62,377 bases of DNA from Phycisphaerae bacterium (GCA_050115495.1 JASFQK010000041.1:1-62377), one strand, 5' to 3'. Shown: positions 12,873-49,524, counted from the first letter of the stretch. Made by a program: numbers and translations. The notes: generated by a model not told the origin, from the sequence alone.

Positions 12873-14555
12873 TCACGGCGAGGGGGTTTGTTCCCAGGTG
12901 ACGCCGGTCTGACCGAGGAGAACGCCGCAGGCGAAGGCGATATCCACTTGCGAGACTTCGTAGGCGGCCAGGGCCTGGATTTCGCGGGACTGGGCGGAGG
13001 CGAGCCGGGCCGCGGCTTCTAGGACGTCGGTGCTCGTGCGCAGACCTACCTCGAACTGGCGTTTCTCGGCTTCATAGGTACGTCCCGCCAGGACGACTTC
13101 CTGCCGGGCGGCGAGGATGCGTTGCCAGTCCTGCTCCAGGCCGTCCACCGCGTCGTAGACCTCCTGGCGGATGGCCAGCCGGCGCTGCTCGCGCGTGGCC
13201 AGCCGCTGGACGCGTTCGAGCATCGCCCGGCGCACGCGGGAGCGGGCGGCCTCGTTTCCGAGCGGGATCTCGGCGCGCAACGACAGCGTGTGATCGCCGT
13301 AGCGGTGACCGTCGGTGTCACGGAAGGCTTCGTGGAAGCTGCCGCCGACGCCGGCGGTCTGGTAAGTGTAGTCCAGCACGAACAGCGGCAGCGCGGCGTT
13401 GCGCTCGAAGTCGATCGAGCTGTCGTCGATCGCCAACTGTAACTCCAACTCGAGCAGCTCCATCCGCTCGGCGACGGCGTAGTCGGCCAGGCCCTCGGCA
13501 TCGAGCGTCAGCCCTACCGGGTCGGGGTCGGTGGTCGGGACCAGTGTCGTCGGCGAGTTCAGCGGCAGGTCGGCACGGTTCATCATGCGCTTCAGGTCGC
13601 GCTCGCGGCGGCGCAGCGACGTCCGGGCGATGATGATCGCTTCGAGCCGCGAGGCCACGCCGGACTCGGCCCGCATGATCTCGATTTCGGGCGAGTCGCC
13701 GGCGGCGACACGCTTGCGGGCGTCGCTGAGCTGCTGGAGCGCCAATTCGTGCTGCTGCTGCACGACCTCCAACTCGCGGCGGCCGGCGTAGACCAGCCAG
13801 TACGCCCGGTCCGCATTGGCCAGGATGCGGATGGCGGCCAGCTTGGTGCGGGCGCCGGCGATGTCGCGCTGGTACCGGGCGACACGGATGGTGTGCGTGT
13901 TGGCGCGAAAGCCGGCGTTGCGTAACAACGGCTGGCTGATTGAGAACTTCAGGCCGGCGTCATAGACGGGATCGTACGCGTAGCCGTTTTCCTGCGAGGC
14001 GCCGTGCGTGTTCTGCTGGTCGTTGGCGTAGGAGGCGGGCATGCTGAGCGTGATCTCGCCGCCGGTCGGCAAGGGGACTTTGAGGCCGGCCTCGCCCTGC
14101 GTCGTGCTCCACTCCTGCGGCACGCCATCCACGACGCTGGACGGCTCGTCGATGCGCCCGTGTTCGAGCGAGCCGAACAGCAGGGCCTCGAACCGCGCCC
14201 GGGCCTCGGAGATCGACTGCTCGGCGATCGTCGGCGTGACCAGCTCGACCTTCAAATCGAGGTTGCTGGCGAGGGCGGAGGCGCGGACTTCGTCGAGCGA
14301 CAGCTCAAGGCTGGCCGCCGGCTGCGAGGTCGGGGCCAGTTGCGCTGCGGCCTCGGTCGTGGCTTGTTCGACGGAGACAGGTGGCGCCTGCGACATGTCC
14401 TTGAGCCGCATGGCCAGGACTTCGTGCGTGTCCTGCGGCGGTGGACGATAACCGTCCGGTGCCGGCAGGCGACAGCCGAGGACGCAGAGCCCCATCGCCG
14501 CGCCGAGTGCGGCCAGATGCCGGATCGTGAGACGTCGTCTGTTCGTTACTCGCAT
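12873..14555 (-). CDS. TolC-family outer-membrane efflux protein (probable lipoprotein)
   Basis: Two OEP-like coiled-coil halves (FSISQPLLRNAG; EKRQFEVGLRTSTDVLEA); lipobox-like VLGC; start overlaps the end of P13. Confidence 0.93.
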   Translation of the reverse strand: MRVTNRRRLTIRHLAALGAAMGLCVLGCRLPAPDGYRPPPQDTHEVLAMRLKDMSQAPPVSVEQATTEAAAQLAPTSQPAASLELSLDEVRASALASNLDLKVELVTPTIAEQSISEARARFEALLFGSLEHGRIDEPSSVVDGVPQEWSTTQGEAGLKVPLPTGGEITLSMPASYANDQQNTHGASQENGYAYDPVYDAGLKFSISQPLLRNAGFRANTHTIRVARYQRDIAGARTKLAAIRILANADRAYWLVYAGRRELEVVQQQHELALQQLSDARKRVAAGDSPEIEIMRAESGVASRLEAIIIARTSLRRRERDLKRMMNRADLPLNSPTTLVPTTDPDPVGLTLDAEGLADYAVAERMELLELELQLAIDDSSIDFERNAALPLFVLDYTYQTAGVGGSFHEAFRDTDGHRYGDHTLSLRAEIPLGNEAARSRVRRAMLERVQRLATREQRRLAIRQEVYDAVDGLEQDWQRILAARQEVVLAGRTYEAEKRQFEVGLRTSTDVLEAAARLASAQSREIQALAAYEVSQVDIAFACGVLLGQTGVTWEQTPSP

Positions 14556-17008
14556 CGCAGCGCCACCATCGGATCGACCTCCGTTGCCCGGCGAGCCGGG
14601 ATATAGCTGGCAACAAGCCCCACCAGGAGCAGCGTGACGCCGGCGCCGATGAGCGTGAGCAGGTCGGTCGGCGACACGCCGTACAACAGTGTCCGCAGGC
14701 CCTTACCCAGGAGGAGCGCCAGGCCAACGCCGGCGAGAATGCCGGTCACGGTCAGCATCATGGAACGCCGCGCGACCAGGCGCAGCACATCACCTGGACG
14801 AGCGCCCACCGCCACGCGAATGCCGATCTCGTGCGTACGCTGGCCGACCGCATGGGCCATCGTACCGTACAGCCCGACGCCGGCCAGAAGGAGCGCGATG
14901 ACCGCGAACGCGGTCAGCAGGCCCGCGAGGATCCCGCCCGGGCGAAACTCGTCGAAGACGATGTCGTTCATCGCGCGTACGCGGTACACGGCCAGTTCCG
15001 GATCGATATCCCAGATGGCTTCCTGCACGTCTCGTGCCGCGCCGAGCGGCGGGCCGGCGGTGCGCACGGCGAACGACATCCGGCTCGCCGGCACCTGGGC
15101 ATGCGGACGGTACGTTTCCAGGCGTGTTTCGCGGGTCACGCCGCGCTGCTTCACGTCGCCCACAACGCCAACCACGGTCAGCCAGGGCCCTTCCGCATCG
15201 CGGGCCCCGTACTTGAGGCGCTTGCCGACGGCGGACTGACCCGGCCAGAACCGCTGCGCCAGCGTCCGGTTCACGATCACGACGCTCTGCGCCGCCACGT
15301 CGTCGAGTTCCGTGAAGTCGCGCCCTTCGAGCAAGGGAATGCCCATCGTCGCGAAGTACTCCGGCGTCACGGTGATTCGTCCGAGGAAGATCTCGCCGCG
15401 CGGGTGTCGTTCCACGTGCTCCTCGATCGTCGCGTAGGACCAGATGTCGAGCCCGTCGCAGGGCAGCGTGGAGATGGCGGCGGCGGCTGTAACGCCGGGC
15501 AGGGCACGGATCTCGTCCACAGCTCGCTCAACGAACGTGACCCGCCGCTCGGCGTCCCCGTACCGCTCCGGCGGCAGTTGCGTCCGCATGGTCAGGAGCT
15601 GTCGCGCATCGAAGCCGGGATCGGCCCCCAGCAGTCGCATGAAGCTCCTGGCCGTCAGGCCGGCCGACGCGGTCAGACCCATCGCCAAAGCGATCTGGCC
15701 GACGATGAGGGCGTCCACGGGCAGCCACCGCGCTCGGCCGATGGGCCGCGACGGTGACGCGTCGCGGAACATGTCACTGAGGCGAACGCGGCCGCTGCGC
15801 AGCGCCGGGACGAGACCGGCCGCGAGCATTGCGACACACGACAACCCGAGCGTCACGAGGAGTGCCGTTCGGTCAACGGCGATCTCGTTCTTGCGCGGGA
15901 CCACGTCGGGCAGATGCGTCACGAGAAGCGCCACACCCCAAGCCGCCAGCAGTGCGCCCAGCAGGCCGCCCGCCAGTGACAGGACGGCACACTCCGTGAG
16001 CATCTGGCGAATCAAACGTCCGCGGCTGGCCCCGAGCGCGGCCCGGATGACATACTCGCGTGCCTGGGTCTGACCGCGGGCGAGCAGCAGATTCGCCACG
16101 TTCACGCAGGCGATCAGCAGCACGAAGGCCACGGCCGCGGTCAACACCGTCAGGGCCTGTTTGACTTCCCGCCCGGCGATGGTGTCCAGGAGGGGCATGA
16201 CGTTAACGGTGTACCCCGTGTTCGAGTCGGGGTAGGTTTCGGCGAGGCTCGCGGCGATAGCTTCCAATTCCGCCCTGGCGCCCGCGACGCTGACGCCGGG
16301 TCGCAGCCGCCCGATCGCGTGGTACGAGCGATCCGCGCGGTTGTAGTCACCGGCGGCGAAGGCGAAAGGCACCCAGACGTCGAAGGGCTCCCAGATCTGA
16401 TCGAACCGCCCCCACGCTCGGCTGAACTCCGGCGGGAGCACGCCGAGGACTTCGTAAGGCATGCCGTCGAGCAGGATGGTCTGGCCGACGATTTGTGGAT
16501 TGGCGGCGAAGCGCCGCCGCCAGAAGCCGTCCGACAGCAACGCAACACGCTCGTGTCCGGGAAGGTCTTCGTCCGGCCCGAAGATACGGCCGATCCGGGC
16601 CTCGAAGCCCAGCACCGGCAGCAAGCTGGCGGAAGCGCGGGCGGCGATCACGCGTTCCGGGCGATCGCCGCCGGTGAGGTTGTAGCTCGTGTACGTGCAA
16701 ATGCCCATGTCGATGAAGGAGCGGCTCCGGGCGCGCCAGTCCACGAAATCGTTGGCGGAGACATTCGAGCGGTCCCAGCCTTCGGTGGGCTGAGCGGCCT
16801 GAAGCGTGGCGTTGGCCGAGAAGATACCGACGAGCCGGTCCGCCTCCGGATATCCGAGCGGCCGGAGCAGAATACCGTTGACGATGCTGAATACGGCGGT
16901 GCACGCGCCGATACCGATGGCCAGCGTCACGACGACCACCGCCGTAAAGCCCGGCCGTTTCGCCAGCGTGCGTACCGCGTAGCGCAGATCCTGGAGCACG
17001 TTGCTCAC
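14546..17008 (-). CDS. double MacB/FtsX ABC permease P13 (ADOP-like)
   Basis: 820 aa; LQDLRYA..PGF..TLAIGIG, LLIACVNVANLLL, RTHEIGIR and DPMVALRCE motifs. Confidence 0.95.
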   Translation of the reverse strand: MSNVLQDLRYAVRTLAKRPGFTAVVVVTLAIGIGACTAVFSIVNGILLRPLGYPEADRLVGIFSANATLQAAQPTEGWDRSNVSANDFVDWRARSRSFIDMGICTYTSYNLTGGDRPERVIAARASASLLPVLGFEARIGRIFGPDEDLPGHERVALLSDGFWRRRFAANPQIVGQTILLDGMPYEVLGVLPPEFSRAWGRFDQIWEPFDVWVPFAFAAGDYNRADRSYHAIGRLRPGVSVAGARAELEAIAASLAETYPDSNTGYTVNVMPLLDTIAGREVKQALTVLTAAVAFVLLIACVNVANLLLARGQTQAREYVIRAALGASRGRLIRQMLTECAVLSLAGGLLGALLAAWGVALLVTHLPDVVPRKNEIAVDRTALLVTLGLSCVAMLAAGLVPALRSGRVRLSDMFRDASPSRPIGRARWLPVDALIVGQIALAMGLTASAGLTARSFMRLLGADPGFDARQLLTMRTQLPPERYGDAERRVTFVERAVDEIRALPGVTAAAAISTLPCDGLDIWSYATIEEHVERHPRGEIFLGRITVTPEYFATMGIPLLEGRDFTELDDVAAQSVVIVNRTLAQRFWPGQSAVGKRLKYGARDAEGPWLTVVGVVGDVKQRGVTRETRLETYRPHAQVPASRMSFAVRTAGPPLGAARDVQEAIWDIDPELAVYRVRAMNDIVFDEFRPGGILAGLLTAFAVIALLLAGVGLYGTMAHAVGQRTHEIGIRVAVGARPGDVLRLVARRSMMLTVTGILAGVGLALLLGKGLRTLLYGVSPTDLLTLIGAGVTLLLVGLVASYIPARRATEVDPMVALRCE

Positions 17009-17017
17009 GCTCGACTC

Positions 17018-19492
17018 CTACTCGTGGCGCAAGGCAACCAACGGATCGACTCGGGCCGCCCGCCGTGCGGGCACGTAGCCGGCGAGCAAGGCGACCGCCA
17101 GCAGCAACAGAGCGACGCCGGCGAAAGTCGCCGGATCGAGCGGGCTGGTCTTGTACAACAGCGACGTAAGCACGCGCGTGGCCGGGACGGCGGCCGTCAC
17201 GCCGATGAGCGTACCCACGGTGACGAGCATGAAACAGCGCTTGAGGATCAGCATGATGACCTTTCGGCTCTCGGCGCCCAAGGCGATCCGCACGCCGATC
17301 TCGTGCGTTCGGCAAACCACGGCATAAGCCATCACGCCGTACAGGCCGGCCGACGCCAGGCCCAGGGCGAGCAGGCCGAAGACGCTGAACAGGCCGGCGG
17401 CGAGTCTGGCCGGCAACATGACGTAGCTGATGAAATGCGTCAGGCGGCCCGTGTCCGCCGGCACGAGGTCGGGATCGAGTCCGCGCATGACCTCGCGTAC
17501 GCCGCCGAGGAGCGCGAGCGGATCACGCTCCGCCCGGACGAGCAGCACGGATACGTCGGTGTCGGGCCGCTGGGTCATGGGCAGGTAAACGTACGGCCGC
17601 GGCGGCTCGCCGGGCAGGCGGTACTTGATGGTCTCGGTCACGCCGACGACCTCGAGCCACGGTCCGTCGGGGCCGGTGGTGCTGATGTGCCGGCCGAGAG
17701 GGTCGACGTCGGGCCAGAACCTGTCGACGAAGGCCTGATTGACGATGGCGACGCCGGGAGCGTCCGGCGTGTCGTGGATGTTGAAGTCGCGGCCACGAAG
17801 CAACGCGATATCCAGGTTGTCGAAGTGGCCGGGCGTGACCACGCTGTTGTCGAGATCGACGGAGGTATCCCTCGGCCGGCCGCCGGCCGCCTCCGCGATC
17901 CAGTACTCGCGTGAGGACGTCCCCGGGCCCAGCGCCGGGCAGGTCTCGATGCTGACCGAGCGGACGCTGGGTTGTTCGCGCGTGCGGTCGACGAGCTGGG
18001 CAACAAGTTCGGCCTTGGCTGCCGACGTCGTGTCCCGGCCGCCGAGCTCGAGCATGACATACAGGATGTGCTCGTGCTCGAAACCGGGGTCGAGGGCTTG
18101 TGCTTTCTGAAGGCTGCGGGTGAACAGGCCGGCGCAGATGAGCAATACGCAGGAGACGGCGACCTGGCAGATGACGAGCGCGTTTCGCGAGCGCTGGGCG
18201 GGTTGGCCGACCGTGCTGCCCCAGGCGGCGCCCCCTTTCAGTACGGGCGCCACATGGACGCGCGTCGCGTGCAGCGCCGGCCACAGACCGAAGATGACAC
18301 CCGTGATCAACGACACGACCAGCGTGAAAGCCAATACGCGAAGGTCGGGGTGCACGTCGAGATTGGCCGCCACACCGAAGGGAAGGTTTGGCAGGAGCCG
18401 CAGGGCTGCGTCGAGCGTCCAGACCGCCAGCAAAATGCCCACGCCGCCGCCCAGGACGGCGAGCAGCACGCTCTCGACCAGCACGTGTTGGACGATCCGC
18501 CAGCGTGATGCGCCCAGCGCCAGGCGGATGCCGATTTCCCGGCGTCGTGTGCTGGCGCGGGCCAACAGGATATTCGCCACGTTGGCGCAGGCGATCAGCA
18601 GGACGAGTCCGGCCATGGCCAGGACGAGCAGCGAGATCGCCAGAACAATGCTGCGGATCTCGGGCGTTAGCGAAACCACACCGCTGACGGGCAGCAGCAC
18701 CGCGCGGTCGTAGTCCGCGGGCTGCTCGTGCTGAGCGATGACCTGCGGGGCGATGACGTCCAGGCGAGCCCGGGCCTGCTGGAGCGACAGGTCGGGCGGA
18801 AGGCGGCCGATCACCTGGAGCCAGTCGGATTCGCGCTGCTCCAGCGTACCCGCATCCCCGGGCCGAACCTGGTCGAGCATCGCCATCGGCACCCACAGAT
18901 CCGGCACAACGATGGTCATGGCGCCACTGAAGCCGACGGCCGCAACGCCGACGATCGTGAAGGGCCTCCCGGCGATGAGCAGGTGTTGACCGATGACTTG
19001 AGGATCCGCCTGCCACGCGGTCCGCCAGTAGCGGTCCGACAGGACCACCACGGGATGTCCGCCGGGAACTTCGTCGTCGGCCTCGGTGAGCAGGCGGCCC
19101 AACTGCGGCTCGGCACCGAGTGTCTGGAAGTAGTTGCCGGTGATGATCTGGCCGAAGCGAATGCTGGTGGCGTCGCCGCGGCCCATGCTGAGAGGCAGCA
19201 TGCTGTAGGCGGCCAGTTCGTCGAACAGGTCCTGGTTCGCGCGGTAATCGCGGTAGTCGGGGTAGGACATCGTGATGCCGGCCAGCCCCTGCGTCGTGTG
19301 GCGCTGGAGAGAGACGAGCCGTTTGCCGTACGGGCCGGGCAGCGGCCGGAACAGGACGGTGTTGACCAGGCTGAACATGGCGGTGTTCACGCCGATGCCA
19401 AGGGCGAGGGTCAGGATCACGAGCAAGGCAAAGCCGGGAGCCCGCCCGAGCGTGCGGCCGGCATGGCGAATATCCTGGAGCAGAGAGCTCAT
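17018..19492 (-). CDS. double MacB/FtsX ABC permease P12
   Basis: Start MSSLLQDIR after GGGAGG; same motif set; ends DPLVALRHE. Confidence 0.95.
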   Translation of the reverse strand: MSSLLQDIRHAGRTLGRAPGFALLVILTLALGIGVNTAMFSLVNTVLFRPLPGPYGKRLVSLQRHTTQGLAGITMSYPDYRDYRANQDLFDELAAYSMLPLSMGRGDATSIRFGQIITGNYFQTLGAEPQLGRLLTEADDEVPGGHPVVVLSDRYWRTAWQADPQVIGQHLLIAGRPFTIVGVAAVGFSGAMTIVVPDLWVPMAMLDQVRPGDAGTLEQRESDWLQVIGRLPPDLSLQQARARLDVIAPQVIAQHEQPADYDRAVLLPVSGVVSLTPEIRSIVLAISLLVLAMAGLVLLIACANVANILLARASTRRREIGIRLALGASRWRIVQHVLVESVLLAVLGGGVGILLAVWTLDAALRLLPNLPFGVAANLDVHPDLRVLAFTLVVSLITGVIFGLWPALHATRVHVAPVLKGGAAWGSTVGQPAQRSRNALVICQVAVSCVLLICAGLFTRSLQKAQALDPGFEHEHILYVMLELGGRDTTSAAKAELVAQLVDRTREQPSVRSVSIETCPALGPGTSSREYWIAEAAGGRPRDTSVDLDNSVVTPGHFDNLDIALLRGRDFNIHDTPDAPGVAIVNQAFVDRFWPDVDPLGRHISTTGPDGPWLEVVGVTETIKYRLPGEPPRPYVYLPMTQRPDTDVSVLLVRAERDPLALLGGVREVMRGLDPDLVPADTGRLTHFISYVMLPARLAAGLFSVFGLLALGLASAGLYGVMAYAVVCRTHEIGVRIALGAESRKVIMLILKRCFMLVTVGTLIGVTAAVPATRVLTSLLYKTSPLDPATFAGVALLLLAVALLAGYVPARRAARVDPLVALRHE

Positions 19493-19503: not shown

Positions 19504-22008
19504 TCATTCACATCGCAGGGCCACCATCGGATCGACTCTGGTCGCCCGGCGAGCAGGTAGATAACAGGCCAGAACGGCGACGACGGCGAGCAGTCCGGCG
19601 ACGCCTACGAACGTGGTCGCATCCGTCACTTCAACGCCGTAGAGGAAGCTGGCCAGAAGGCGCGTCGCCGCGAGGGAAACGGCCAGTCCGATGGCCAGCC
19701 CGACGCCGGCAAGCATCAGTCCGCGGCCGAGTACGGCACGTAACACGTCGGCGCGTCGCGCCCCCAGGGCCATGCGGACGCCGATCTCATGCGTGCTCTG
19801 GCTGACGATGTGGGCCAGGACCGCGTATAGGCCGACGACCGCCAGCACGAGCGCAATACCGGCGAAGACCACCAGCAGCGCGAGAGAGAACCGGCGTTGC
19901 GAGAGGATGTCGGACAGGCGCTGCTCCATCGTGGCGACCTGCATCAGCGGCCTGTCCTTGTCGAGGCTCCAGACTTCCTTCGCAACGGCATTGACCAACG
20001 CCTCGGGATCGGTGGAGGTGCAGACCGTCAGGTACATCCCCCGCTGGGCCCACTGCGGATACGGCCGGTAGTAGGTCATTGTCGGGAGCGAGTCGAGGTC
20101 CGATTGCCTCACGGCGCCGACGACGCCGACGACCGTCAGCCAGGAGAGCTGTGAGCCCGGCCACGGAGCTTTGATCCGCCTGCCGATGGCAGTTTCGGAG
20201 GGCCAGAAGCGTCTGGCGAAGGTCTCGTCGACGATGACCACGGGCAGGCTGTCGGAGGTGTCGTACTCGTTGAAGAATCGCCCGGCGATCAGCGGGATCT
20301 TCATGGTCTCGAAGTAGTCCCGGAGAACGACGCGCTCGTCAGCCGTGGTGCACGTGTCCTCATCCGCCGGTAGCTGGCCCTCGACGGCGACGGGGCCCGT
20401 GCAATCCCCGGGCGTCATGGGCAGTACGTTCACTCCGCCGACAGATTCCACGCCCGGCAGCGCGGCGATGCGCTGGCCGACTTCGTCGAAGAAGGCGGCG
20501 TGCCTAGCCATGTCCCTCCCGTAGTCCGGATTCGGCGGCAACTGAAACGTCAACACGTTGTCGGGCGCGAACCCCGGGTCCACGCTCTGTAACCTGCAGA
20601 AACTGTGAATGAGCAGGCCGGCACCGATCAGCAGAATGACCGAGAGACTGAGTTCACCCACGACCAGCAGATGCCGGGCGTCGCTGCGCCAATGCCAGAA
20701 GGAGCCCGCGCCGACGGCGCTGCGCGGCCCTTCGCGAAGCGTCTGTTCCAGACCCATGCGCGACGCGGTCCACGCGGGCACGAGCCCGAAGATGATACCC
20801 GTGAGCACGGACAGGCCCAGGGTGAACGTCACGACCGAGACACTGACGCCCACCTCGTTGATCCGCGGTATCTTCTCGGCGCCGATCGCCAGGAGCAGCG
20901 ATGTGCCCCAGGAGCCGAGCAGCAAGCCGCCACCGCCGCCCAGCACCGACAGCAGGATCGCCTCGGTCAGGAGCTGACGCATGATGCGCAGGCGGCTCGC
21001 GCCGAGAGCCAGGCGCATCCCGATCTCTTTGCGGCGTTTCGTCGCCCGTGCCAGCAGCAGGTTGGCGATGTTCGCGCACGCGATCAGCAGCACCAGGGCC
21101 ACCGCCCCGCTGAACGACCACAGGGCCGGTCGCACCGCCCGTACCACGAGATCGTCCATGGGCAGGACATCGACGGTGAAGCCGGCCTGGGTCGGATAGA
21201 AATCCGGGTGTTGCTGAACCATGCGGCCGACCAGCAGACGCAGTTCCGCCCTGGCGTCTGCGAGGGTGACGCCGTAAGCCAGGCGGGCGAACAGGCGGTA
21301 GTTCTGGCGACCGTGCTCGTAGCGGTCCGCGGCGCTCAGCGAGAGCGGTATCCAGTAGTCGATCCTGGCCGCCGGGTCGCGGAACATCGGCAGGTACGCG
21401 CGCGTGGCGGGGAAGTCCTCCGCCAATACGCCGATGACGCCGTAGCTCTGGCCGTCGAGTTCAAGGAGCGTGCCGATCACGCCGGGATCGCAGCCGAAGC
21501 GGCGTTGCCACAGGGCGTGACTTAGGACGATCGTATGCGGCCTGCCCGGGTCATCATCTGCCGGCGAGAACACGCGGCCGAGCGCCGGCTTCGCACCCAG
21601 TGTCGCCAGACACCATGCGGAAGCACGCATACCGCGGACCCGCTCGGGAACACCGCCCTCCGTGAGCGTGAAAGAATGCGTATGGAGAATGGCGACGTCG
21701 TCGAAGACACGGGACTGGTCCTTGATCTCGAAGTACATGGCCGGCGAGAAGACACCGTCCTCGTCGTTGAACAGGTCTCCCAAGACGAGCCCCTCCCCGT
21801 TCAGCCCGGGAAGCCGGCTCCACAGCACGACCAGATGGTCCGCATCGGCGAAAGGCAAGGGTCGCAGCAGAACGCCGTGAACGACACTGAAGATCGCCGT
21901 GCTGGCACCGATGCCCAGCGACAGCGTCAGGATGACGACGAGGGCAAAGCCGGGGGAGCGCCACAGCGTTCGGGCGGCGTAACGCAGGTCCTGAAGCAGC
22001 GCGCTCAT
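19504..22008 (-). CDS. double MacB/FtsX ABC permease P11
   Basis: 834 aa; same motif set; ends DPMVALRCE. Confidence 0.95.
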   Translation of the reverse strand: MSALLQDLRYAARTLWRSPGFALVVILTLSLGIGASTAIFSVVHGVLLRPLPFADADHLVVLWSRLPGLNGEGLVLGDLFNDEDGVFSPAMYFEIKDQSRVFDDVAILHTHSFTLTEGGVPERVRGMRASAWCLATLGAKPALGRVFSPADDDPGRPHTIVLSHALWQRRFGCDPGVIGTLLELDGQSYGVIGVLAEDFPATRAYLPMFRDPAARIDYWIPLSLSAADRYEHGRQNYRLFARLAYGVTLADARAELRLLVGRMVQQHPDFYPTQAGFTVDVLPMDDLVVRAVRPALWSFSGAVALVLLIACANIANLLLARATKRRKEIGMRLALGASRLRIMRQLLTEAILLSVLGGGGGLLLGSWGTSLLLAIGAEKIPRINEVGVSVSVVTFTLGLSVLTGIIFGLVPAWTASRMGLEQTLREGPRSAVGAGSFWHWRSDARHLLVVGELSLSVILLIGAGLLIHSFCRLQSVDPGFAPDNVLTFQLPPNPDYGRDMARHAAFFDEVGQRIAALPGVESVGGVNVLPMTPGDCTGPVAVEGQLPADEDTCTTADERVVLRDYFETMKIPLIAGRFFNEYDTSDSLPVVIVDETFARRFWPSETAIGRRIKAPWPGSQLSWLTVVGVVGAVRQSDLDSLPTMTYYRPYPQWAQRGMYLTVCTSTDPEALVNAVAKEVWSLDKDRPLMQVATMEQRLSDILSQRRFSLALLVVFAGIALVLAVVGLYAVLAHIVSQSTHEIGVRMALGARRADVLRAVLGRGLMLAGVGLAIGLAVSLAATRLLASFLYGVEVTDATTFVGVAGLLAVVAVLACYLPARRATRVDPMVALRCE

Positions 22009-31977: not shown

Positions 31978-32706
<729 letters not shown>

Positions 32707-40047: not shown

Positions 40048-42477
40048 CTACTCACACCGCAACGCCGTCAGAGGATCGACGCGCGTCGCCCGCCACGCCG
40101 GCACGAGGCAGGCGAGCGTCGCCACCACCACCAGGACGACCGGTGCGATGGCGAACGTGATCGGGTCGGCGGCGCTCACGCCGAAGAGCATGCCCGAAAC
40201 GAGTCGCGACGCCGCCAGTGACGCGACGAGCCCCGCGACGATTCCGATTCCGACGAGCACCATGGCCTGCCGCAGGACGAGTCCCCGGACCTGGCCAGCC
40301 TGCGCGCCGAGCGCAACGCGCAACCCGATCTCCTGCGTCCGCTGGGCGACGATGTACGACAGCACGCCGTACAGCCCCAGCGAAGCGAGCACGAGCGCCG
40401 CACCGGCAAACGCGACCAGCAGAAACGTCATCGCTCGCCGCGGGTGCACCGTGCGGTCGATGTAGAACTCGAGCGTCCGCATCGCAAACGGGGCCTCGTC
40501 GCCCGTCAGCTCGGTCACCTCACGCCGGACGGTGTCGACGAGCTGCTCCGGATCGCCCGCCGTCCGCAGGACGAAGTACATCTGCGGCCAGGCGAGCTGT
40601 TGGTAAGGAACGTACAGATAGGGCTCCGGGCCGGCGTTAAGGCCGGCATCGCGGGCGTTGCGGACGATGCCGACGACCTCGTAGTCGGCGGGCTCGTTGT
40701 CGGTGATCCTGGCGCCGACGAACAGCCGCCGGCCGATGGGATCCTCGTCGGGCCAGAACTTCCGGGCCATTGCCTCGTTGATGAGCAGCGCGCCGGAGGC
40801 GTTTTCGGTGTCGTGCTCGTCCAGCATGCGACCCTTGAGCAACGGGACGCCGAGCGTCTGGAAGTAGTCCGGGCTCACGGCGCAGAACCGCACAACCGGC
40901 ATCTTCTCCGGATCGACGTCCGGGCGATCGAGCAGCCGGATGTGGAGCATCTGGTGACCGGGCACGAGCGGCAGCGACGTGCTCGTCCCAACGGCCGTCA
41001 CGCCCGGCACCGCGGCCAGCCGCTCCCGCAACTGGTCGTACATCCGCGCTCGCGCCGGCGGGTCCTCGTACTCAGAGAACGGCACCGCCAACTGGAACGT
41101 CAGCAGGTTTCGCGGGTTGAATCCCGGATCGACGTCCAGCAGTTGCCCCAGGCTCCGCAGCAGCAAGCCGGTCACCACCAGCAACACGACCGACAGCCCC
41201 ACCTCGCAGACGACCAGCCCGCCACGAAGGCGGCTTCGCGGCCGGCCGACGGCGGACTGGCGGTTCGTGGTCAGCATGCCGTGCGATGCCCGACGGGCGG
41301 CCTGTATGCCGGGGACGAGCCCGAAGGCGAGCGCGGTCACGACCGACAGCGCCAGCGTAAACAGCACGACGGGCGTGCCGACTTCCACATCGACCCGTCG
41401 GGGCAGTTGCTCCGGCAGCAACCCGCGCAGGGCGTCGCCGGACCACGCGGCCAGCGCCACACCCAGCAGCCCCCCCACCACACTCAATAGCAGGCTCTCG
41501 GCCAGGAACAGCCGCATCAACTGCCAGCGGCTGGCGCCGAGCGCACCGTGGACCGCCAATTCGCGGCTACGTGCCGTGCCGCGGGCCAGCAGCATGTTCC
41601 CCACGTTCGCGCACGCGATCAGCAGCACGAGCACCACCGCGCCGAAGAGCAGCTTCAGCGCGGGCCGCACGGTGGCCACGACCTCGTCATGCAGCGGGAC
41701 GACCTCGAGCGACCAGTCGTGGTTGGCGGTCGCGTACTCGGCACGCAACCGCTCGGCGATTGTGCCCAGCTCCACGCGGGCCTGCGACGCCGTAACGCCG
41801 TCGCGTAGCCGGCCGACGACGCGCAGGCGCTGGGTGGCCCGGTTCGAGTAGATGGTCGAATCGCGGGCCGTCGTCATCCAGATTTCGACGTCACTAATGC
41901 CCAGGGGGAAGGCGAAGCCCGGCGGCAGAACGCCGACGATCGTGAAGCTCAGACCGTCGATCAGGGCCGACCGGCCGATGACGTCGGGCGTGCCACCGAA
42001 GCGATTCTTCCAGCAGGCGTCGCTGATGACCATCACGTTGTCGGCGCCGGGCTCATCCTCGCCGGCCTGAAACAGCCGCCCGAGGGCCGGCCGGACGCCC
42101 AGCACCGACCAGAAGCCGTCCGTGGCGATCGTGCCGCGGAGACGCTCGGGCACGCCGACGCCACTCAGCGTCACCAGCGTGCCCCTCTGGCCGGCAAGGT
42201 TTTCGAAGCTGCTCGCCTGCTGCCGCAGGTCGGCGAGATTGGCGTACGAGATGACGCCGGCGGCGCGGCGTTGTCCGCCGTGCAGCTCGGCGACGACGAC
42301 CAGGCGATCCGCATCCGCGAAGGACAGCGGTTTGAGCAGGATGCCGTAGACGACGCTGAACATCGCCGAATTCGCGCCGATGCCCAGGGCGAGGCAGATG
42401 ATGATCGCCGCGGAAACACCCGGGCTGCGTATCAGCACGCGTGAGCCGTATCGCAGATCCTGGAGCCATCCGCGCAT
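40048..42477 (-). CDS. double MacB/FtsX ABC permease P3
   Basis: 809 aa; same motif set; ends DPLTALRCE. Confidence 0.95.
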   Translation of the reverse strand: MRGWLQDLRYGSRVLIRSPGVSAAIIICLALGIGANSAMFSVVYGILLKPLSFADADRLVVVAELHGGQRRAAGVISYANLADLRQQASSFENLAGQRGTLVTLSGVGVPERLRGTIATDGFWSVLGVRPALGRLFQAGEDEPGADNVMVISDACWKNRFGGTPDVIGRSALIDGLSFTIVGVLPPGFAFPLGISDVEIWMTTARDSTIYSNRATQRLRVVGRLRDGVTASQARVELGTIAERLRAEYATANHDWSLEVVPLHDEVVATVRPALKLLFGAVVLVLLIACANVGNMLLARGTARSRELAVHGALGASRWQLMRLFLAESLLLSVVGGLLGVALAAWSGDALRGLLPEQLPRRVDVEVGTPVVLFTLALSVVTALAFGLVPGIQAARRASHGMLTTNRQSAVGRPRSRLRGGLVVCEVGLSVVLLVVTGLLLRSLGQLLDVDPGFNPRNLLTFQLAVPFSEYEDPPARARMYDQLRERLAAVPGVTAVGTSTSLPLVPGHQMLHIRLLDRPDVDPEKMPVVRFCAVSPDYFQTLGVPLLKGRMLDEHDTENASGALLINEAMARKFWPDEDPIGRRLFVGARITDNEPADYEVVGIVRNARDAGLNAGPEPYLYVPYQQLAWPQMYFVLRTAGDPEQLVDTVRREVTELTGDEAPFAMRTLEFYIDRTVHPRRAMTFLLVAFAGAALVLASLGLYGVLSYIVAQRTQEIGLRVALGAQAGQVRGLVLRQAMVLVGIGIVAGLVASLAASRLVSGMLFGVSAADPITFAIAPVVLVVVATLACLVPAWRATRVDPLTALRCE

Positions 42478-42486
42478 GCCCGTCTC

Positions 42487-44886
42487 CTATTCACACCGCA
42501 GCGCCACCAGCGGATCGACTCTCGCCGCTCGCCGGGCCGGGACGCAGGAAGCCAGCAGGGCCACCGCAAGCAGAACGAACGGAACGAAAGCGAAGGTCTT
42601 CAAGTCGGTTGGTTCCACGCCGTAGAGCAGGCCCGTCAGCACGCGCGACAGGGCAAAGGCACCCGCGAGCCCAGCGGCAGTGCCGATGAGAACCGGAATC
42701 ATGCACCAGCCCACGGTGGTCCGAAGAACGCTCCAGCCGCTCGCCCCCAGCGCGACGCGCACGCCGATCTCGCGCGTGCGCTGCGAGACCGAGTAGCTCA
42801 GCGTGCCGTAGATGCCCACCGCAGCCAGCCCGAGCGCGACCAGGGCGAAGATGTCCATCAACAACATGCGGAAGCGCGGAGCCGCTGCCTGCCGGCCCAG
42901 GTACTCTTCCAGCGTGCGCATGGCTGACACCGGCATGTCCGGGTCCAGTCCGTGCAGACGCTCGCATAGCAAACGCTCGAGCTGCCGAGGATCGGAGCTG
43001 GTGCGAATGACGAGGTAGGTGGCGCCGCGCGGGTTCTGTTTCGCGGGCCAGTAGACCATCGGTTCCGCCGGCGCGCCGGGTCGTAGCGGCGCCACGTCGG
43101 CCGCCACGCCCACGATCGTGTGGGGCCCGCGTCCGATCGTGATCTGCTGGCCGATTGAGTCCTGGTCGAGCCAGTACTGCCTGGCCATTGTCTCGTTGAT
43201 GATGGCCACGCGCGGCGTGTCGCGCACATCGTCTTGTGTGAAGTGTCGTCCGCACAGCAGCGGGATCCCGAGCGTGCGCAGGAAGGTCGGGCTGACGTCG
43301 CAGGTGTTCGCCACCTGCGGCCGGTCAATCGACGGATCGGGTCGGCCCACGATGGTGAATTCCCCCGTTTCCCGACCGCCGAACAGCGGGCCGGCACTGC
43401 CGAGTCCGGCGGAGATCACTCCGGGTAGAGACTGCGCCTCTTCGGCGGCGCGGGCGAAAAGGTCCGTCGCCTCCCAGCCGGTCTTGTGTTTCCCGGACGA
43501 AGCCTGCAACCAGACGGTCGCGATGTTCTCTCGGTCGAATCCCGTTCCCCACCCCATCAGACTCGTGAAGCTGCGGGTGAGCAGCCCAGCCCCGACGAGC
43601 AGCATCAACGTCAGCGCAACCTCCGAGACGATCAGGCCGCCGCCGGCCCAGGACGATGCCGACCCACCTCCCTGGCGATCGCCCTTGAGTGCCTGGAACG
43701 GCGCGGCGCGACAGGACTGAATCGCCGGCACCAGCCCCGAGAGCACGCTGGCCAGCAGCGAGACCGCCAGCGCGAAGAGGAGAGCGCGGCCGTCGACAGA
43801 GACTCCACCAAGCCTCGGGATGTTCCCGGGGGCGGCTTTCGCCACCATGCCCACGACCCACGAGGCCGTCAACGCCCCCGCCAGGCCCCCCAGCAGAGAC
43901 AGCACCACGTTCTCCGCGAGCACCAGTCGCGCCAGTCGGAATCGGCCGGCGCCTACAGCGGCTCGCACCGCCAGTTCGCGGCGACGCCCCGTTGCCCGCA
44001 CCAGCAGCACGTTCGTCACGTTGGCGCAGCCGATCAGCAACACCAGCCCCGCCGCTCCGGTGAAGACCGCCATCGCCGGACGCACCGTGCCAACGATCTG
44101 CTCGTGCAGTGATTCGACGCGTACGCCCCAGCCCTCGTTCGTGTTGGGGTACTGCTGAGCCAGCCGGGCGGCGATCGTCGTCATCTCAGTGCGGGCGCGT
44201 TCGAGAGATGCACCGGGTGCCAGGCGCCCGTACGCGTAGAACCCACGCCAACTCCGCCACTGCGCCTCGCGTGGCTCGTACTGCGGCGGCGTCCAAAGCT
44301 GAACAGCCTCCAGCCGCGGGATGGACAAGCCGGCCGGCAACACGCCCACGACGACGTACGGGGTCGCGTCGAGCACGAGCGTCTGGCCGACGATGTTCGG
44401 CGAGCCGCCCAGCCGGTCGCGCCACAGCTTGTGGCTGAGAACCACGACGCGATCGGAGCCCGGGTCCAGGTCCTCCGGCGTCAAGACACGCCCGTACAAC
44501 GGGTCGATGCCCAGCACGGAGAACAGGCCCGGCATGGCCAGCCCACCGTTGACGCCCTCGGCGCCGCCGGGTCGATTGAGAATAAAGGGCCATTCGCGCC
44601 CGAGACCGAACTCCTCGATCGCCTGACTCTGCTGAGCCCAGTCCTGCACGTTCGCCACGGAGGCGACTCGGAAGCCGCTGACCTCGGGGTTGGTCTCGTA
44701 CAGACAGACGAGTCGATCGGCGTTCGGGAACGCCAGTGGGCGGAGCAGCACGCCGTCCACTACACTGAAGACGGCGGTGTTGACGCCGATACCCAGGGCG
44801 AGGCAGATGATGACCGCCGCGGAAACACCGGGGCTGCGAATCAGCACGCGTGCGCCGTACCGCAGATCCTGGAGCCATCCGCTCAT
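42487..44886 (-). CDS. double MacB/FtsX ABC permease P2
   Basis: 799 aa; same motif set; ends DPLVALRCE. Confidence 0.95.
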   Translation of the reverse strand: MSGWLQDLRYGARVLIRSPGVSAAVIICLALGIGVNTAVFSVVDGVLLRPLAFPNADRLVCLYETNPEVSGFRVASVANVQDWAQQSQAIEEFGLGREWPFILNRPGGAEGVNGGLAMPGLFSVLGIDPLYGRVLTPEDLDPGSDRVVVLSHKLWRDRLGGSPNIVGQTLVLDATPYVVVGVLPAGLSIPRLEAVQLWTPPQYEPREAQWRSWRGFYAYGRLAPGASLERARTEMTTIAARLAQQYPNTNEGWGVRVESLHEQIVGTVRPAMAVFTGAAGLVLLIGCANVTNVLLVRATGRRRELAVRAAVGAGRFRLARLVLAENVVLSLLGGLAGALTASWVVGMVAKAAPGNIPRLGGVSVDGRALLFALAVSLLASVLSGLVPAIQSCRAAPFQALKGDRQGGGSASSWAGGGLIVSEVALTLMLLVGAGLLTRSFTSLMGWGTGFDRENIATVWLQASSGKHKTGWEATDLFARAAEEAQSLPGVISAGLGSAGPLFGGRETGEFTIVGRPDPSIDRPQVANTCDVSPTFLRTLGIPLLCGRHFTQDDVRDTPRVAIINETMARQYWLDQDSIGQQITIGRGPHTIVGVAADVAPLRPGAPAEPMVYWPAKQNPRGATYLVIRTSSDPRQLERLLCERLHGLDPDMPVSAMRTLEEYLGRQAAAPRFRMLLMDIFALVALGLAAVGIYGTLSYSVSQRTREIGVRVALGASGWSVLRTTVGWCMIPVLIGTAAGLAGAFALSRVLTGLLYGVEPTDLKTFAFVPFVLLAVALLASCVPARRAARVDPLVALRCE

Positions 44887-44895
44887 CCCGGCCTC

Positions 44896-47319
44896 CTATT
44901 CACACCGCAGCGCCACGAGCGGGTCGACCTTCGTCGCCCGCCGGGCGGGAATGAGACACGCCAGCAGCGCGATGCCGACGAAGACTACCGCGGCGACAGC
45001 GAAGGTCGGTGGATCCGTCGCCTCAACGCCGAACAGCCACGCCCGCAGCAGCCGCGTGCCCGCGTAGGCACCGGTCAGCCCCAGGCCAACACCGATGATC
45101 GCCAGCCGTAAACCCTGCCAAAGCACCAGGCGTAGCACCTGGCCGGCGCGGGCCCCGAGCGCCAGCCGCACACCCAACTCGTGCGTGCGCTGGGTAACTG
45201 AGAAAGCCAGCACGCCGTAGATGCCCAGCACTGCCAATAGCAGGGCGAGCGCTGCGAACAGGCCCAGCAGCAGCATGGGATAGCGGCGATGGGCGACGGA
45301 GTCGGAGTAATACTGCTCCATCGTCGCGAAGGCGAAGGGCGCATCGTTCGCCGTCAGCTCGGCGACCGCACCGCGAATGTTGTCGATCAGGGCCAGCGGG
45401 TTGCCGCCGGTTCGCAGGCTGAGCAGGACACTGCCGTCCGGGAACTGGCGGTATGGGACGTAGATGTTCGGCCACGCCTTGACTTCGAGGCTGTTGTCAC
45501 GCACGTCGCCCACGACGCCGACGATCTCGTAGTCGCGCTTCGGTCCGATCGACGCCCCGGGGCAAACCATGTGTCCGAGCGGGTCGCCGTCCGGCCAGTA
45601 GCGGCGCGCCGTCGACTCGTCGATCAACATCGCTCCCACCTGGCTCCGCGCGTCGTTGTCGTCGAAGAGCCGCCCGCGCAGCAGCGGGATGCCGAGCGTC
45701 GCGAAGTAGCTCGGCGACACGGCCCGCATCATCGTGAACGAGGTCTCGGCCGCCTCCGGATCGGGAGCGTCCAGGATCGTGACGTTGCAGGCCATGCCCC
45801 GCCTCGTCAGCGGTAGCCCGTTGCTCAGGCATACGTTGCGCACGGTGGGCAGGCCGCGCAGGCGTTCGCAGAGCTGCTCGAAGAAATCCGCCCGTTGCGG
45901 ATGGGGCGTCGTGGCCCCGACGTCCATCTGGAAGGTCAGCACGTGGTCGGTGACGTAACCGAGCGGGACACTGGTCAGTCCGTGGAAGCTGCGGACGAGC
46001 AGGGCCGCGCCGATGAGCAGCGTCGTCGCCAGGGCGATTTCGCTAACGACGAGCGTGCTTTGCAGACGATGCCGGACGGCGACGCCGGAAGAGCGGACGC
46101 CGGACTTCAGTGCGCCGTGGAGGTCGGCGCGGGCACTGCCAATCGCCGCCGGCAGACCGAAGAGCAGGCCGGTCAGCATGGCGACGGCCACGGCGAACGC
46201 CAGCACGCGGCCGTCGATCGCCACCTCGTCCAGCCGCGGGATGTCCGCGGGCAGCAGGGCCACGAGCGCATCGAGGGCCCAGAAGGCCAATGCCACGCCG
46301 AGCGCGCCGCCGACGAGGCCGACCAGCACGCTCTCGGTCAGCAGTTGCCGCATCAGACGCAGCCGGGCGGCACCCAGGGCCGCCCGCACGGCCAATTCGC
46401 GCCGGCGTTGCAGGCCCTGCGCCAGGTAGAGGTTGGCGATGTTCGCGCAGGCGATGAGCAGCACCAGCCCCACGGCACCCAGCAGCAGCCACAGCGCCGA
46501 GCGCGATTCGCCGACGAGCGATTCGCGCATCGAAACCACGCCGATGCGATAGTTGGAATTGACGTTCGGGTATTCCTGCGCGAGGCGGGCCGCGATGTCG
46601 GTCATCTGCGTCTGCGCCTGCGCCAGGCTGACGCCCGGCTTCAGTCGGCCGGCCACGCGCAGCATCGAGCTGCTCCGCCTGCCGTACATCTGCGACTCGG
46701 CCGGCACGGGCGTCCACAGTTGCGCGTCGCGCACCTCGTACGGAAACCGGAAGCCCGGCGGCAGAACGCCGACGACCGCGAAGCCCTCCTGATCGAGCAC
46801 GATCGTCCGGCCGATGACGTCGGGGTCGGCGTCGAACCGTTTGCGCCACAGCTTGTCGCCGAGCACGACGACGTTGCCGCTCTTCCCTTCGACGTCGTCG
46901 GCGGTCAGCAGCCGGCCGAGGGCGGGCTGCGCGCCGAGCATCGGGAAGAAGCCCTCCGTGACGAACGCAGCCTCCAGTTGCACGGGCGCCCCTACGCCGG
47001 ACAACGTGTATTTCGTTGCGGAGAACGCCCCCAGGCCGTCGAAGACGGTGCTCTGCTGCTCCCAATCCCGGAAGTTCGGCAGGGCCGCGCCGCTGAGCCT
47101 CACGTTGTACGCCGGCAGTTCACGCTCAGATTCCAGCGACACGAGTTGCTCGGGGGCCTGGAAGTCCAGCGGCCGCAGCACGACCGCGTTGATGACGCTG
47201 AAGATGGCGGTGTTGGCCCCGATGCCCAACGCCAGGCAGGCGACGACAACCGCCGCGAACCCGGGCCGGCGGCCCAGCGCCCGTATCGCGTAGCGGAGAT
47301 CCTGAAGCAACGTGTTCAC
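44896..47319 (-). CDS. double MacB/FtsX ABC permease P1
   Basis: GTG start (VNTLLQDLRY) after GGGAGA; ends DPLVALRCE. Confidence 0.95.
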   Translation of the reverse strand: MNTLLQDLRYAIRALGRRPGFAAVVVACLALGIGANTAIFSVINAVVLRPLDFQAPEQLVSLESERELPAYNVRLSGAALPNFRDWEQQSTVFDGLGAFSATKYTLSGVGAPVQLEAAFVTEGFFPMLGAQPALGRLLTADDVEGKSGNVVVLGDKLWRKRFDADPDVIGRTIVLDQEGFAVVGVLPPGFRFPYEVRDAQLWTPVPAESQMYGRRSSSMLRVAGRLKPGVSLAQAQTQMTDIAARLAQEYPNVNSNYRIGVVSMRESLVGESRSALWLLLGAVGLVLLIACANIANLYLAQGLQRRRELAVRAALGAARLRLMRQLLTESVLVGLVGGALGVALAFWALDALVALLPADIPRLDEVAIDGRVLAFAVAVAMLTGLLFGLPAAIGSARADLHGALKSGVRSSGVAVRHRLQSTLVVSEIALATTLLIGAALLVRSFHGLTSVPLGYVTDHVLTFQMDVGATTPHPQRADFFEQLCERLRGLPTVRNVCLSNGLPLTRRGMACNVTILDAPDPEAAETSFTMMRAVSPSYFATLGIPLLRGRLFDDNDARSQVGAMLIDESTARRYWPDGDPLGHMVCPGASIGPKRDYEIVGVVGDVRDNSLEVKAWPNIYVPYRQFPDGSVLLSLRTGGNPLALIDNIRGAVAELTANDAPFAFATMEQYYSDSVAHRRYPMLLLGLFAALALLLAVLGIYGVLAFSVTQRTHELGVRLALGARAGQVLRLVLWQGLRLAIIGVGLGLTGAYAGTRLLRAWLFGVEATDPPTFAVAAVVFVGIALLACLIPARRATKVDPLVALRCE

Positions 47320-47381: not shown

Positions 47382-48149
<768 letters not shown>

Positions 48150-48225: not shown

Positions 48226-49479
48226 CTAACGCAGACATACGCGGTCGAACTCGTCCCAGCGGGACATGTCTGACAACACCACCTGGTCCCCAACCTCCAG
48301 GCCACGGCGAATCTCCACCGTGTCCACCGAGTTGCTGCCCAATTCCACCGGGACGCGATCCGCCGTCGTTCCGTCGGCACGCAGCCGGAACAGGCTGATC
48401 GTGCTGTTGGCCTGGGCATGGACGGGCCGGCCCACGAAGAGCACGTCGTCCAGCCGCTCGATCTCGATCGTGCCGACGATGCTCAGGTCGGGCCGGGCGC
48501 CACGCGGCAGTTCGCCCTCCAGGGCCACATCCACCGCGACCGTGGCCTCCTGCACCGCCGGGTCGATCCGCACGACGCGGCCGGGCACGATGCCGTTGCG
48601 GGTGTCGATCGACGCGACCTGGCCCGGCTGCACATCGCGGGCCTGAGTCTCCGGAATCCGCACGACGGCCTTGAGCGTGCGCACGTCGGTGACCTTGGCG
48701 AGAATTGTGCCGGCCGCCACGCGCTGCCCCACCTCGACCGGAAGCTGCTCGAGGATACCGGCCGTGCCCGCCCGCACGCGCAGCGCGTCCACCTGCGCCG
48801 CCTTCAGAGCGTGGCGGGCTCGAGCCTGCTCGATTCGCGCCCGCTGCGCCGCCAGGCGGGCCTCCCGCGAGGTGTCCCACGTCTCCAGCCGCGCCTTCTC
48901 GATTTCGATGAGCCTGGCCAACTGGTCTACGCGGGCCCGCGACAGCCGGACGTTCCGCTCAGAGATCAATCCGTCAGCGAAGAGCTCCTCATCCACTTCG
49001 CGTTGCAGAACCGCCTCCTGGTGATCGGCCTCCAGCCGGGCCACGGACGCCTCCAACGTCAGCCGCTCGTTCTGAAGCGTGACCTGGAGCGCCGCGAGAT
49101 CCGCCTCGGCGGAGGTGGCCTCCCACTCGGCGTCGGCGGCTGCCAGATCCAGCTCGGGATTGCTCAGTTCGAGCAGGACCGTCTCCGCGTCCACCTGTGC
49201 ACCGGGCAGGACGAGGACGCGCTCCACGCGCCCGTCGGTGACCGCCGGTATCCACCAGATCACTTCGGGCACGAGCGTGCCCGTGCCGCGCACGGCCCGC
49301 AGCATCGGGCCGCGTTTGACCGTGTCCAACCACACGGCGGAGCGCTCGACGCTCGGCGCCGCCGGCTCCAGCCGGGACAGGCCCCACGTGACGGCGACGA
49401 TCGCTACGGCGGCAACCACGAGCAGGCTGCTGCGAACGATCCAGCGGCGACGAGCGATGTTGGCGCGAGGTATATCCAC
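48226..49479 (-). CDS. MacA/HlyD-family periplasmic adaptor (membrane fusion protein)
   Basis: N-terminal TM helix, lipoyl half-motifs (GRVERVLVLPG; GILEQLPVEVGQRV), long alpha-hairpin, GLEVGDQVVLSD; GTG start inferred (TTG 49491 is an alternative). Confidence 0.95.
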   Translation of the reverse strand: MDIPRANIARRRWIVRSSLLVVAAVAIVAVTWGLSRLEPAAPSVERSAVWLDTVKRGPMLRAVRGTGTLVPEVIWWIPAVTDGRVERVLVLPGAQVDAETVLLELSNPELDLAAADAEWEATSAEADLAALQVTLQNERLTLEASVARLEADHQEAVLQREVDEELFADGLISERNVRLSRARVDQLARLIEIEKARLETWDTSREARLAAQRARIEQARARHALKAAQVDALRVRAGTAGILEQLPVEVGQRVAAGTILAKVTDVRTLKAVVRIPETQARDVQPGQVASIDTRNGIVPGRVVRIDPAVQEATVAVDVALEGELPRGARPDLSIVGTIEIERLDDVLFVGRPVHAQANSTISLFRLRADGTTADRVPVELGSNSVDTVEIRRGLEVGDQVVLSDMSRWDEFDRVCLR

Positions 49480-49509
49480 GTTACAGCCCAATCCTTAGTG
49501 GCCGGAGTG

Positions 49510-49524
49510 GCAAGTGACGTGCCG
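49510..49524 (-). promoter_or_regulatory. sigma54 (-24/-12) promoter of the exporter operon
   Basis: Minus strand CGGCACGTCACTTGC: GG-N10-GC, matching consensus TGGCACG-N4-TTGC, 30 bp before the adaptor start. Confidence 0.85.

Follow-up and report, generated by a model that had tools for sequence, protein, structure and literature searches.

Thirteen ADOP permease genes with one adaptor, two ATPases and one TolC in an operon of an uncultured planctomycete

Introduction

In abundant bacteria of soil and sediment, few unexplained genes are as expanded as those for permeases of the ADOP family (TIGR03434). The full description of the family is reportedly that of Ward 2009, where "orphan" is said to mean that an ATPase gene is not adjacent. 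The present study analyzes a 62,377-nucleotide (nt) stretch of DNA from a Phycisphaerae bacterium (GCA_050115495.1 JASFQK010000041.1:1-62377), hereafter the window, in which 13 ADOP permease genes stand in one operon with a single adaptor gene, two ATPase genes and a single TolC-family gene. Expansions of the family have been reported from an acidobacterium, with 102 copies of which 80 are transcribed (PMC10564751), and from Dyadobacter, with 28–33 (PMC11573002), and Psychroflexus torquis ATCC 700755 has a 42-kb cluster of ten ADOPs (P700755_003736-003761) for which efflux was suggested (PMC3914696).

Several better understood systems offer points of comparison. MacB-type pumps move no substrate across the inner membrane but carry it from the periplasm to the outside via adaptor and TolC, with ATP binding shutting the MacB periplasmic domains and driving substrate outward (PMC5985334). 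YbbP has ten transmembrane (TM) helices and binds two free ATPases through two coupling helices (PMC12646458). Deletion of darBCD, which encodes the darobactin exporter, cuts darobactin yield 2-4-fold (PMC8442675), and the kinase BceS is activated through its type VII transporter, for which flux sensing is established (PMC10314905).

Results

The window, contig C41, belongs to a 5.97-Mb bin that is 92% complete and comes from an uncultured planctomycete, for which the listed sequencing runs are wetland metagenomes. The order of this bin also includes a genome labelled Planctomycetota. Along the minus strand, from 49479 down to 12873, 17 co-oriented genes follow in the order adaptor, ATPase1, permeases P1–P6, ATPase2, P7–P13 and TolC, exactly as the initial annotation had proposed; of the span it gave (12873..49524) the lower end is that of TolC, while at 49524 a sigma-54 promoter begins rather than a gene, the adaptor open reading frame (ORF) beginning at 49479 (or 49491). 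The adaptor (48226..49479) is a MacA-like periplasmic membrane fusion protein of 417 amino acids (aa) with one TM segment, matching HlyD_3, HlyD_D23 and TIGR01730 (101 bits, cut-off 94.9). The TolC-family outer-membrane duct (12873..14555) has two OEP stretches (128.9 bits) and a lipobox-like Cys near its N-terminus, and a Cys behind a hydrophobic stretch recurs in 8/8 homologues listed. The 11 gaps between neighboring permease genes are each 9–15 nt, and in ten of them the stop codon overlaps a Shine-Dalgarno-like stretch, which together point to one coupled transcript; scans for sigma-70 promoters and terminators gave counts at chance level only. Exactly 13 matches to TIGR03434 exceed the cut-off in the whole source genome, every one inside the array, and a whole-genome search found one match each for adaptor and TolC at E<1e-20.

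The array is not an assembly artefact. The source genome is a metagenome bin, and a chimera, which the initial annotation had named as a concern, is nonetheless exceedingly improbable: the permease paralogues are 32–66% identical with a longest shared exact DNA repeat of 26 bp; in run X1, which is possibly the source sample and hence not independent, the stretch compared (29600–49599) is covered by unitigs of 26,369, 15,389 and 13,627 bp at a flat depth of 22–23 with zero differing letters and with breaks solely within the two ATPase genes; and comparable arrays occur in other genomes, some in chromosome-length records. Recent transfer as judged by composition was rejected, G+C content at third codon positions (GC3) being 0.79–0.89 in the array and 0.83–0.88 in five flanking genes. 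The copy-number comparison that had been proposed found the system in 0/6 same-genus and 1/24 same-family genomes, a patchiness that leaves both gain and wide loss possible despite the host-like GC3.

All 13 permeases are full length (799–834 aa with refined starts), without internal stops, and score 786–943 bits with TIGR03434 (cut-off 622.3), each with two MacB_PCD and two FtsX Pfam stretches, so that the predicted likeness to the ADOP family was borne out by the profile search. Between ATPase1 and ATPase2 lie P1 (807 aa, 44896..47319, 942.7 bits), P2 (799 aa, 42487..44886, 864.1 bits), P3 (809 aa, 40048..42477, 925.7 bits), P4, the most divergent (803 aa, 37621..40032, 786.4 bits), P5, 66% identical to P1 (806 aa, 35191..37611, 930 bits), and P6 (807 aa, 32758..35181, 906.1 bits). 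Beyond ATPase2 follow P7 (808 aa, 29400..31826, 844.4 bits), P8, 66% identical to p8 of the related genome G043 (806 aa, 26969..29389, 874.9 bits), P9 (817 aa, 24505..26958, 877.2 bits), P10, 64% identical to P12 (824 aa, 22019..24493, 860.3 bits), P11 (834 aa, 19504..22008, 939.4 bits), P12 (824 aa, 17018..19492, 872.7 bits) and P13, 69% identical to G043 p7 (820 aa, 14546..17008, 902.5 bits). P1 has eight hydrophobic segments and its two halves align at 24% identity (E 2e-9); an AlphaFold2 model of P13 (pLDDT 90.5, pTM 0.86) has eight long membrane helices, and its best Foldseek matches are YbbAP (9GE6) and then MacB (5GKO). No solved ADOP structure was found, the PDB sequence matches being MacB, a pneumococcal permease and YtrF. 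[quoted passage not shown] An N-terminal prefix domain was absent in the two window permeases tested and present in 2/4 outside ADOPs.

Mean identity over the 78 permease pairs is 49% in membrane segments and 31–32% in periplasmic domains, and is higher in the membrane segments for 78/78 pairs, in agreement with the contrast first noticed in the sequence. Best kept are the ATPase-facing parts (54% for TM2-coupling helix-TM3, 47%, and 59% for the C-terminal part), and both coupling-helix motifs are present in 13/13. The ratio of nonsynonymous to synonymous change (dN/dS), obtained for five pairs by simple counting, which is imprecise at such divergence, was 0.19–0.29 in membrane parts and 0.20–0.51 in periplasmic parts, the latter reaching 0.51 and 0.38 in within-array duplicates versus 0.20–0.33 in cross-genome counterparts. 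The higher periplasmic divergence is real, and with values below 1 in both parts nothing indicates positive selection.

Trees of 86 and of 39 permeases intermix genomes, with well-supported branches forcing at least nine separate placements of window copies among those of other genomes, which contradicts a single recent local expansion. The array of G043 consists of adaptor, ATPase1, two permeases, ATPase2, six permeases, TolC, regulator and kinase; it holds counterparts of P13, P8 and P11 (57–69% identity) at other array positions, and several genomes have subfamilies in common that are arranged in different orders. Against G043 the chassis is 64–84% identical and the best permease matches 38–69%. 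The mixed trees and steady chassis suggest that old permease subfamilies were kept, lost, duplicated and reordered round a stable core. Gene conversion at the junctions was also considered and rejected, identity at four-fold sites showing no excess at gene ends (0.44–0.48) over the interior (0.42–0.46), with adjacent C-ends mildly raised at 0.56 (n=136).

ATPase1 (47382..48149), a stand-alone MacB/LolD-type nucleotide-binding domain with an ABC_tran match, canonical motifs and D-loop GNLD, and ATPase2 (31978..32706), with D-loop GNLH and QQQL after the signature, are 46% identical and fall in two separate clades. Among 77 distinct ATPases from the related loci, the ATPase1-like members have GNLD with QQQR after the signature (53/53) and the ATPase2-like members have GNLH or GSLH with QQQL (24/24). 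The best 120 database matches to the ATPase2 profile, which were chosen by that profile itself and so are not independent, all have the D-loop His (117 GNLH, 3 GSLH), and the three best solved ATPases aligned to it have Asp at this position. The D-loop Asp governs contact and coupling in the ATPase dimer, and its loss makes TAP a passive facilitator (PMC4242082, PMC7756269). Walker A and B, the catalytic Glu, Q-loop and H-loop of ATPase2 are intact. ATPase2 was found in 25/41 adaptor-bearing genomes; an obligate ATPase1/ATPase2 heterodimer was rejected because ATPase2 was not found in the other 16, one of them 97% complete. On plasmids ATPase2 was not found at 1e-65. In 31 genomes with ADOP counts (entered by hand, lower bounds, from related and incomplete bins and including one unpublished genome, G249), at most two ADOPs are listed in 8/15 without ATPase2 versus 1/16 with it, a distribution suggesting that ATPase2 is optional and leans to larger permease sets. 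It could be an optional second motor subunit, most simply paired with ATPase1 to tune hydrolysis, an interpretation we hold with slightly more doubt than confidence. Two near-identical-scoring ATPase2 copies occur within one array at G046:C1:5582256-5586366, and G261 likewise has two.

A motif scan placed a sigma-54 (-24/-12) promoter at 49510..49524 on the minus strand, 45 nt upstream of the adaptor start and the sole such site on that strand in 12000–50000. The motif occurs in 29/58 adaptor upstream regions (the window and 57 of 62 related loci, five being left out for too little upstream match), compared with 2/57 within-adaptor-gene controls and a shuffle mean of 1.6. Seventy-three nt further upstream lies an enhancer-like dyad of the type TGTCCG-N5-GGGA-N7/8-TCCC-N5-CGGACA (49598..49634, minus strand), recurring at four or fewer mismatches in 33/58 upstream regions and 0 in 30 shuffles, the consensus having been set by visual inspection of those upstream regions. 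Spacings from dyad to promoter cluster near 63, 74, 85 and 94 nt, in steps of roughly one helical turn, and among 22 dyad-like matches in the source genome only that of the operon precedes a sigma-54 site. The dyad is likely bound by the divergent sigma-54-dependent response regulator (49801..51183, plus strand; receiver, AAA+ and Fis helix-turn-helix domains by Pfam). A histidine kinase follows (51176..52594, plus strand), with two TM helices (40–66, 71–90) separated by a very short loop and then PAS and HATPase domains. Regulator and kinase are found no more than 10 kb from the adaptor in 25/62 loci, and the kinase has the same two helices, short loop and no periplasmic sensor domain in 25/25 homologues listed. 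Such a kinase probably reads the membrane or the pump; that it reads the pump itself is possible, with doubt prevailing. Elsewhere in the source genome (G000:C12:59246-59542) there is an acidobacterial-type PadR regulator, over the TIGR03433 cut-off, with no adjoining ADOP.

Adaptor relatives were found at 62 loci, also in Acidobacteriota, Gemmatimonadota, Gammaproteobacteria and Verrucomicrobiota, the closest (70–78% identical) coming from Phycisphaerae or Planctomycetota bins. Thirteen permeases are not a record: one G255 contig has at least 15 ADOPs, G047 has 14 full-length copies and pieces, G041 ten plus three and G042 three. ADOPs exceeded the cut-off in 20/20 further adaptor-bearing genomes and in 2/300 genomes of the phylum, where few candidates were scored per genome; among 200 genomes of the class, ADOP and ATPase1 occurred in the same single genome. 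A minimal locus in G044/G167 (97% complete) consists of adaptor, ATPase1, one ADOP and TolC, and ATPase2 was not found there. A Gloeobacter morelensis plasmid (NZ_CP063846.1; L093:15001-24250) has an ADOP (788 bits), an adaptor 52% identical to that of the window, and ATPase1 in an operon with an 83-aa ORF, a cyclophane-type radical SAM enzyme, a sensor and a regulator, with a transposase adjoining; it is a candidate cluster for a modified peptide exported by an ADOP.

Some further observations concern related loci and flanking genes. One-permease versions with sigma-54 regulator and kinase occur in Pseudoalteromonas (L094:7941-19064), where a LodA/GoxA oxidase operon runs divergently, and on a plasmid of Xenorhabdus (L095:7845-15946), where a phosphopantetheinyl transferase adjoins; their permeases score 606 and 611 bits, just below the ADOP cut-off. 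The array of G041 is seemingly split between C1:5082538-5089944 and 3558413-3586078, 1.5 Mb apart and with a cut permease at each edge, by rearrangement or scaffolding error. Single, non-recurring genes inserted in arrays encode a beta-lactamase-family serine hydrolase (L027:14941-16593), a C45-like acyltransferase/peptidase (L002:12257-13522) and a protein with a weak Toastrack (DUF4097) match (L031:9992-10810). In the window, a beta-propeller protein of 954 aa that ends in an Ig domain (52779-55643, plus strand) directly follows the kinase, and a 679-aa erythromycin-esterase-family protein with a signal-peptide-like start (55863-57902, plus strand) lies near the pump regulator. On the minus strand at 5982-11703 is a three-gene respiratory cluster. 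It encodes a 4Fe-4S protein, a fusion of an NrfD-like membrane protein with a 6-CXXCH cytochrome, and a cytochrome of 853 aa containing 23 CXXCH motifs; the best matches, HmcB/HmcC, stay under the cut-off. The erythromycin-esterase-like, beta-propeller and multiheme cytochrome genes are not kept beside the 62 related loci, apart from one weak beta-propeller relative, and the ORF at 12003-12683 matches no family and has no credible counterpart in the Atlas.

Discussion

Patterns detected are consistent with a type VII (MacB-like) tripartite exporter in which a shared chassis serves a variable permease set, and we consider this reading probable. The corresponding idea in the initial annotation is supported, as far as sequence goes, by gene content, the conserved coupling helices and the one-permease version, and also by the published P. 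torquis proteomics; its ADOP assignment stands, and its claim of an undescribed system does not, since the P. torquis layout was already in print (PMC3914696). The sigma-54 control unit, the changed D-loop of ATPase2 and the one-permease versions with ATPase1 as sole motor are absent from that annotation. One ADOP chain would replace the MacB dimer, in which case each of the 13 could serve as the entire membrane part, and since the genome has a single adaptor, a single duct and two ATPase genes, the 13 must either share or stay idle. Having no ATPase of its own, an ADOP would bind two separate ATPases by way of both coupling helices and its C-terminal helix, as we infer from the conserved ATPase-facing parts and from YbbAP, ATPase1 alone being enough for a minimal pump. 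ATP binding would then squeeze the periplasmic domains and expel a substrate, either periplasmic or bound to the membrane, by way of the adaptor hexamer and TolC, a mode of export established for MacAB-TolC and presumed here. The 13 permeases would alternate on the common adaptor, duct and motors, differing in recognition; a single sigma-54 promoter under the divergent regulator would drive the operon, and the permease set would turn over via duplication, loss and reshuffling.

In P. torquis all ten intact ADOPs were detected, at relative abundances of 7–542 (PMC3914696, Table S1) that by our own addition sum to 1293, alongside ATPases at 1458 and 1235, adaptor at 1458, TolC at 1102 and kinase at 10, although such spectral counts are imprecise and run low for membrane proteins. 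The resulting ratio of about 1:1:1 for the two ATPases and summed permeases would suit a permease carrying one copy of each motor, for which the hexameric adaptor would be limiting, and these data appear to favour sharing of pump parts over idle permeases.

Several observations weigh against a shared, cargo-sorting exporter. Many transporters diverge more in their periplasmic than in their membrane parts, and positive selection on the permeases was rejected, every dN/dS being below 1. TolC lies within 10 kb of the adaptor in 4/62 loci, though it ends the array in eight longer regions. Genomes in which ATPase2 was not found include some with 12–18 ADOPs listed, so that ATPase2 is not a needed partner, and the second ATPase of P. 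torquis is likened to that of the window by gene content. No substrate, cargo gene or biosynthetic cluster was found in or beside the array, and the inserted ORFs of related loci (28/38 scanned) include no recurring family. The cargo could be peptides or other compounds that act on the envelope, of foreign origin and not made by the source organism itself, although we hold this guess tentatively, at near balance; its peptide part derives from the resemblance of the Gloeobacter radical-SAM locus to DarBCD, a lead of one locus only, and detoxification fits the source genome better than secretion because no precursor is present.

An alternative explanation could be secretion of products made by the cell itself (modified peptides, small proteins or lipids), with one permease for each cargo encoded elsewhere. 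The Gloeobacter locus, with its radical SAM enzyme and small ORF, the loss of darobactin yield on deletion of darBCD, and an abundant protein of 247 aa with a signal peptide, encoded within the P. torquis cluster (PMC3914696), are consistent with this, but precursor and maturase are absent from the window and from the inserted genes scanned, and the DarB model scores at most 28 bits against a cut-off of 700, so that own-product secretion appears unlikely. Less likely still is that the permeases are mainly a bank of sensors, detecting periplasmic ligands and signaling via the sensor-less kinase much as BceAB signals via BceS, with export secondary. The kinase does lack a periplasmic domain in all homologues listed, flux sensing is established for BceAB-BceS, other ADOP-type proteins have an N-terminal signaling domain coupled to PadR (bioRxiv 2020.09.24.301986), and the prefix domain is present in half of the four outside ADOPs tested. 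Against this, that domain is absent in the two window permeases tested, adaptor and TolC are within the operon and in P. torquis reach 1458 and 1102 versus 10 for the kinase, and one regulator output would be unable to distinguish 13 inputs. Copies doing the same job might also simply pile up through unequal crossing-over, by dosage or drift, and the uniform junctions, the range from 1 to >50 copies per genome, and the frameshifted pieces in G045, G046 and G047 (possibly sequencing errors) would suit such an origin. Redundant expansion is nevertheless very improbable given 13/13 intact copies at 32–66% identity, dN/dS below 1, at least nine separate tree placements and no excess synonymous identity at the junctions.

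The shared-chassis reading can be extended, although the extension as a whole is doubtful. The permease library may compete for one adaptor-TolC conduit, with an asymmetric ATPase1/ATPase2 pair whose invariant His D-loop forms a tuned or gating site, and a sensor-less kinase reading pump activity may raise the whole library via one sigma-54 enhancer; the array would then be a heritable, reshuffled repertoire against environmental peptides, and the same chassis might power the tens to hundreds of "orphan" ADOPs of Acidobacteria, Gemmatimonadota and Bacteroidota. One operon here contains every ADOP of the genome with all likely partners, promoter, enhancer and regulator pair, and the one-permease version together with cultured P. 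torquis makes permease sharing, the role of ATPase2 and the cargo of the family testable. A plug-in efflux pump, if true, would be a new route to broad specificity in ABC transporters.

Comparison with known systems sets the array most closely beside the P. torquis cluster, which likewise has a response regulator and a 2-TM kinase in divergent orientation, an adaptor, an ATPase and ten 8-TM ADOPs in tandem, then another ATPase and finally TolC, but stands in a Bacteroidota genomic island with transposases and two disrupted ADOP copies, whereas the source array has 13 intact, tightly coupled genes of host-like GC3. The parts of PMC3914696 drawn on contain no proposal of shared partners and do not treat the two ATPases, promoter or kinase, and no literature on these topics was found in a search that excluded most subscription papers. 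All 13 permeases belong to the ADOP family, yet they are neither orphan nor dispersed, with two ATPase genes in the operon, and the "orphan" label also fails in P. torquis. Like Bce modules (BceAB-BceRS), the array pairs type VII permeases with a kinase that has no extracellular sensor domain; BceB, however, is a Gram-positive protein with ten TM helices and one extracellular domain, without adaptor or TolC, where ADOPs have eight TM helices and two periplasmic domains, and the Bce regulator is not known to be of the sigma-54 type. DarBCD likewise combines a double permease, adaptor and free ATPase, and DarD is the best NCBIfam match of both ATPases, but DarBCD has one permease only, the window has no precursor or maturase and no radical SAM gene among its 31 proteins scanned, and the DarB, DarC and DarD scores (28, 39 and 257 bits) are all under their cut-offs (700, 450 and 375). 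YbbAP-TesA (PDB 9GE6-8), the best Foldseek match, also has a single-chain pseudo-symmetric permease with two free ATPases; it differs in its ten TM helices, its hydrolase partner TesA and its lack of adaptor and TolC, and in the window NF041854 scores at most 26 bits (cut-off 999) and no GDSL hydrolase was found. Adaptor, TolC-family gene, MacB fold and the coupling helices of a type VII permease are held in common with MacAB-TolC, but MacB is a 4-TM homodimer with fused ATPase and one permease gene, whereas here there are fused pseudo-dimers, free ATPases of two kinds and 13 permease genes, and PRK10535, the MacB equivalog, scores 52–128 bits against a cut-off of 966. The ADOP family, its expansions and an operon layout of this kind are already in print, its function is not, and the array is an ADOP system distinct from MacAB, YbbAP, DarBCD and Bce, with a mode of working that would be like that of MacAB-TolC.

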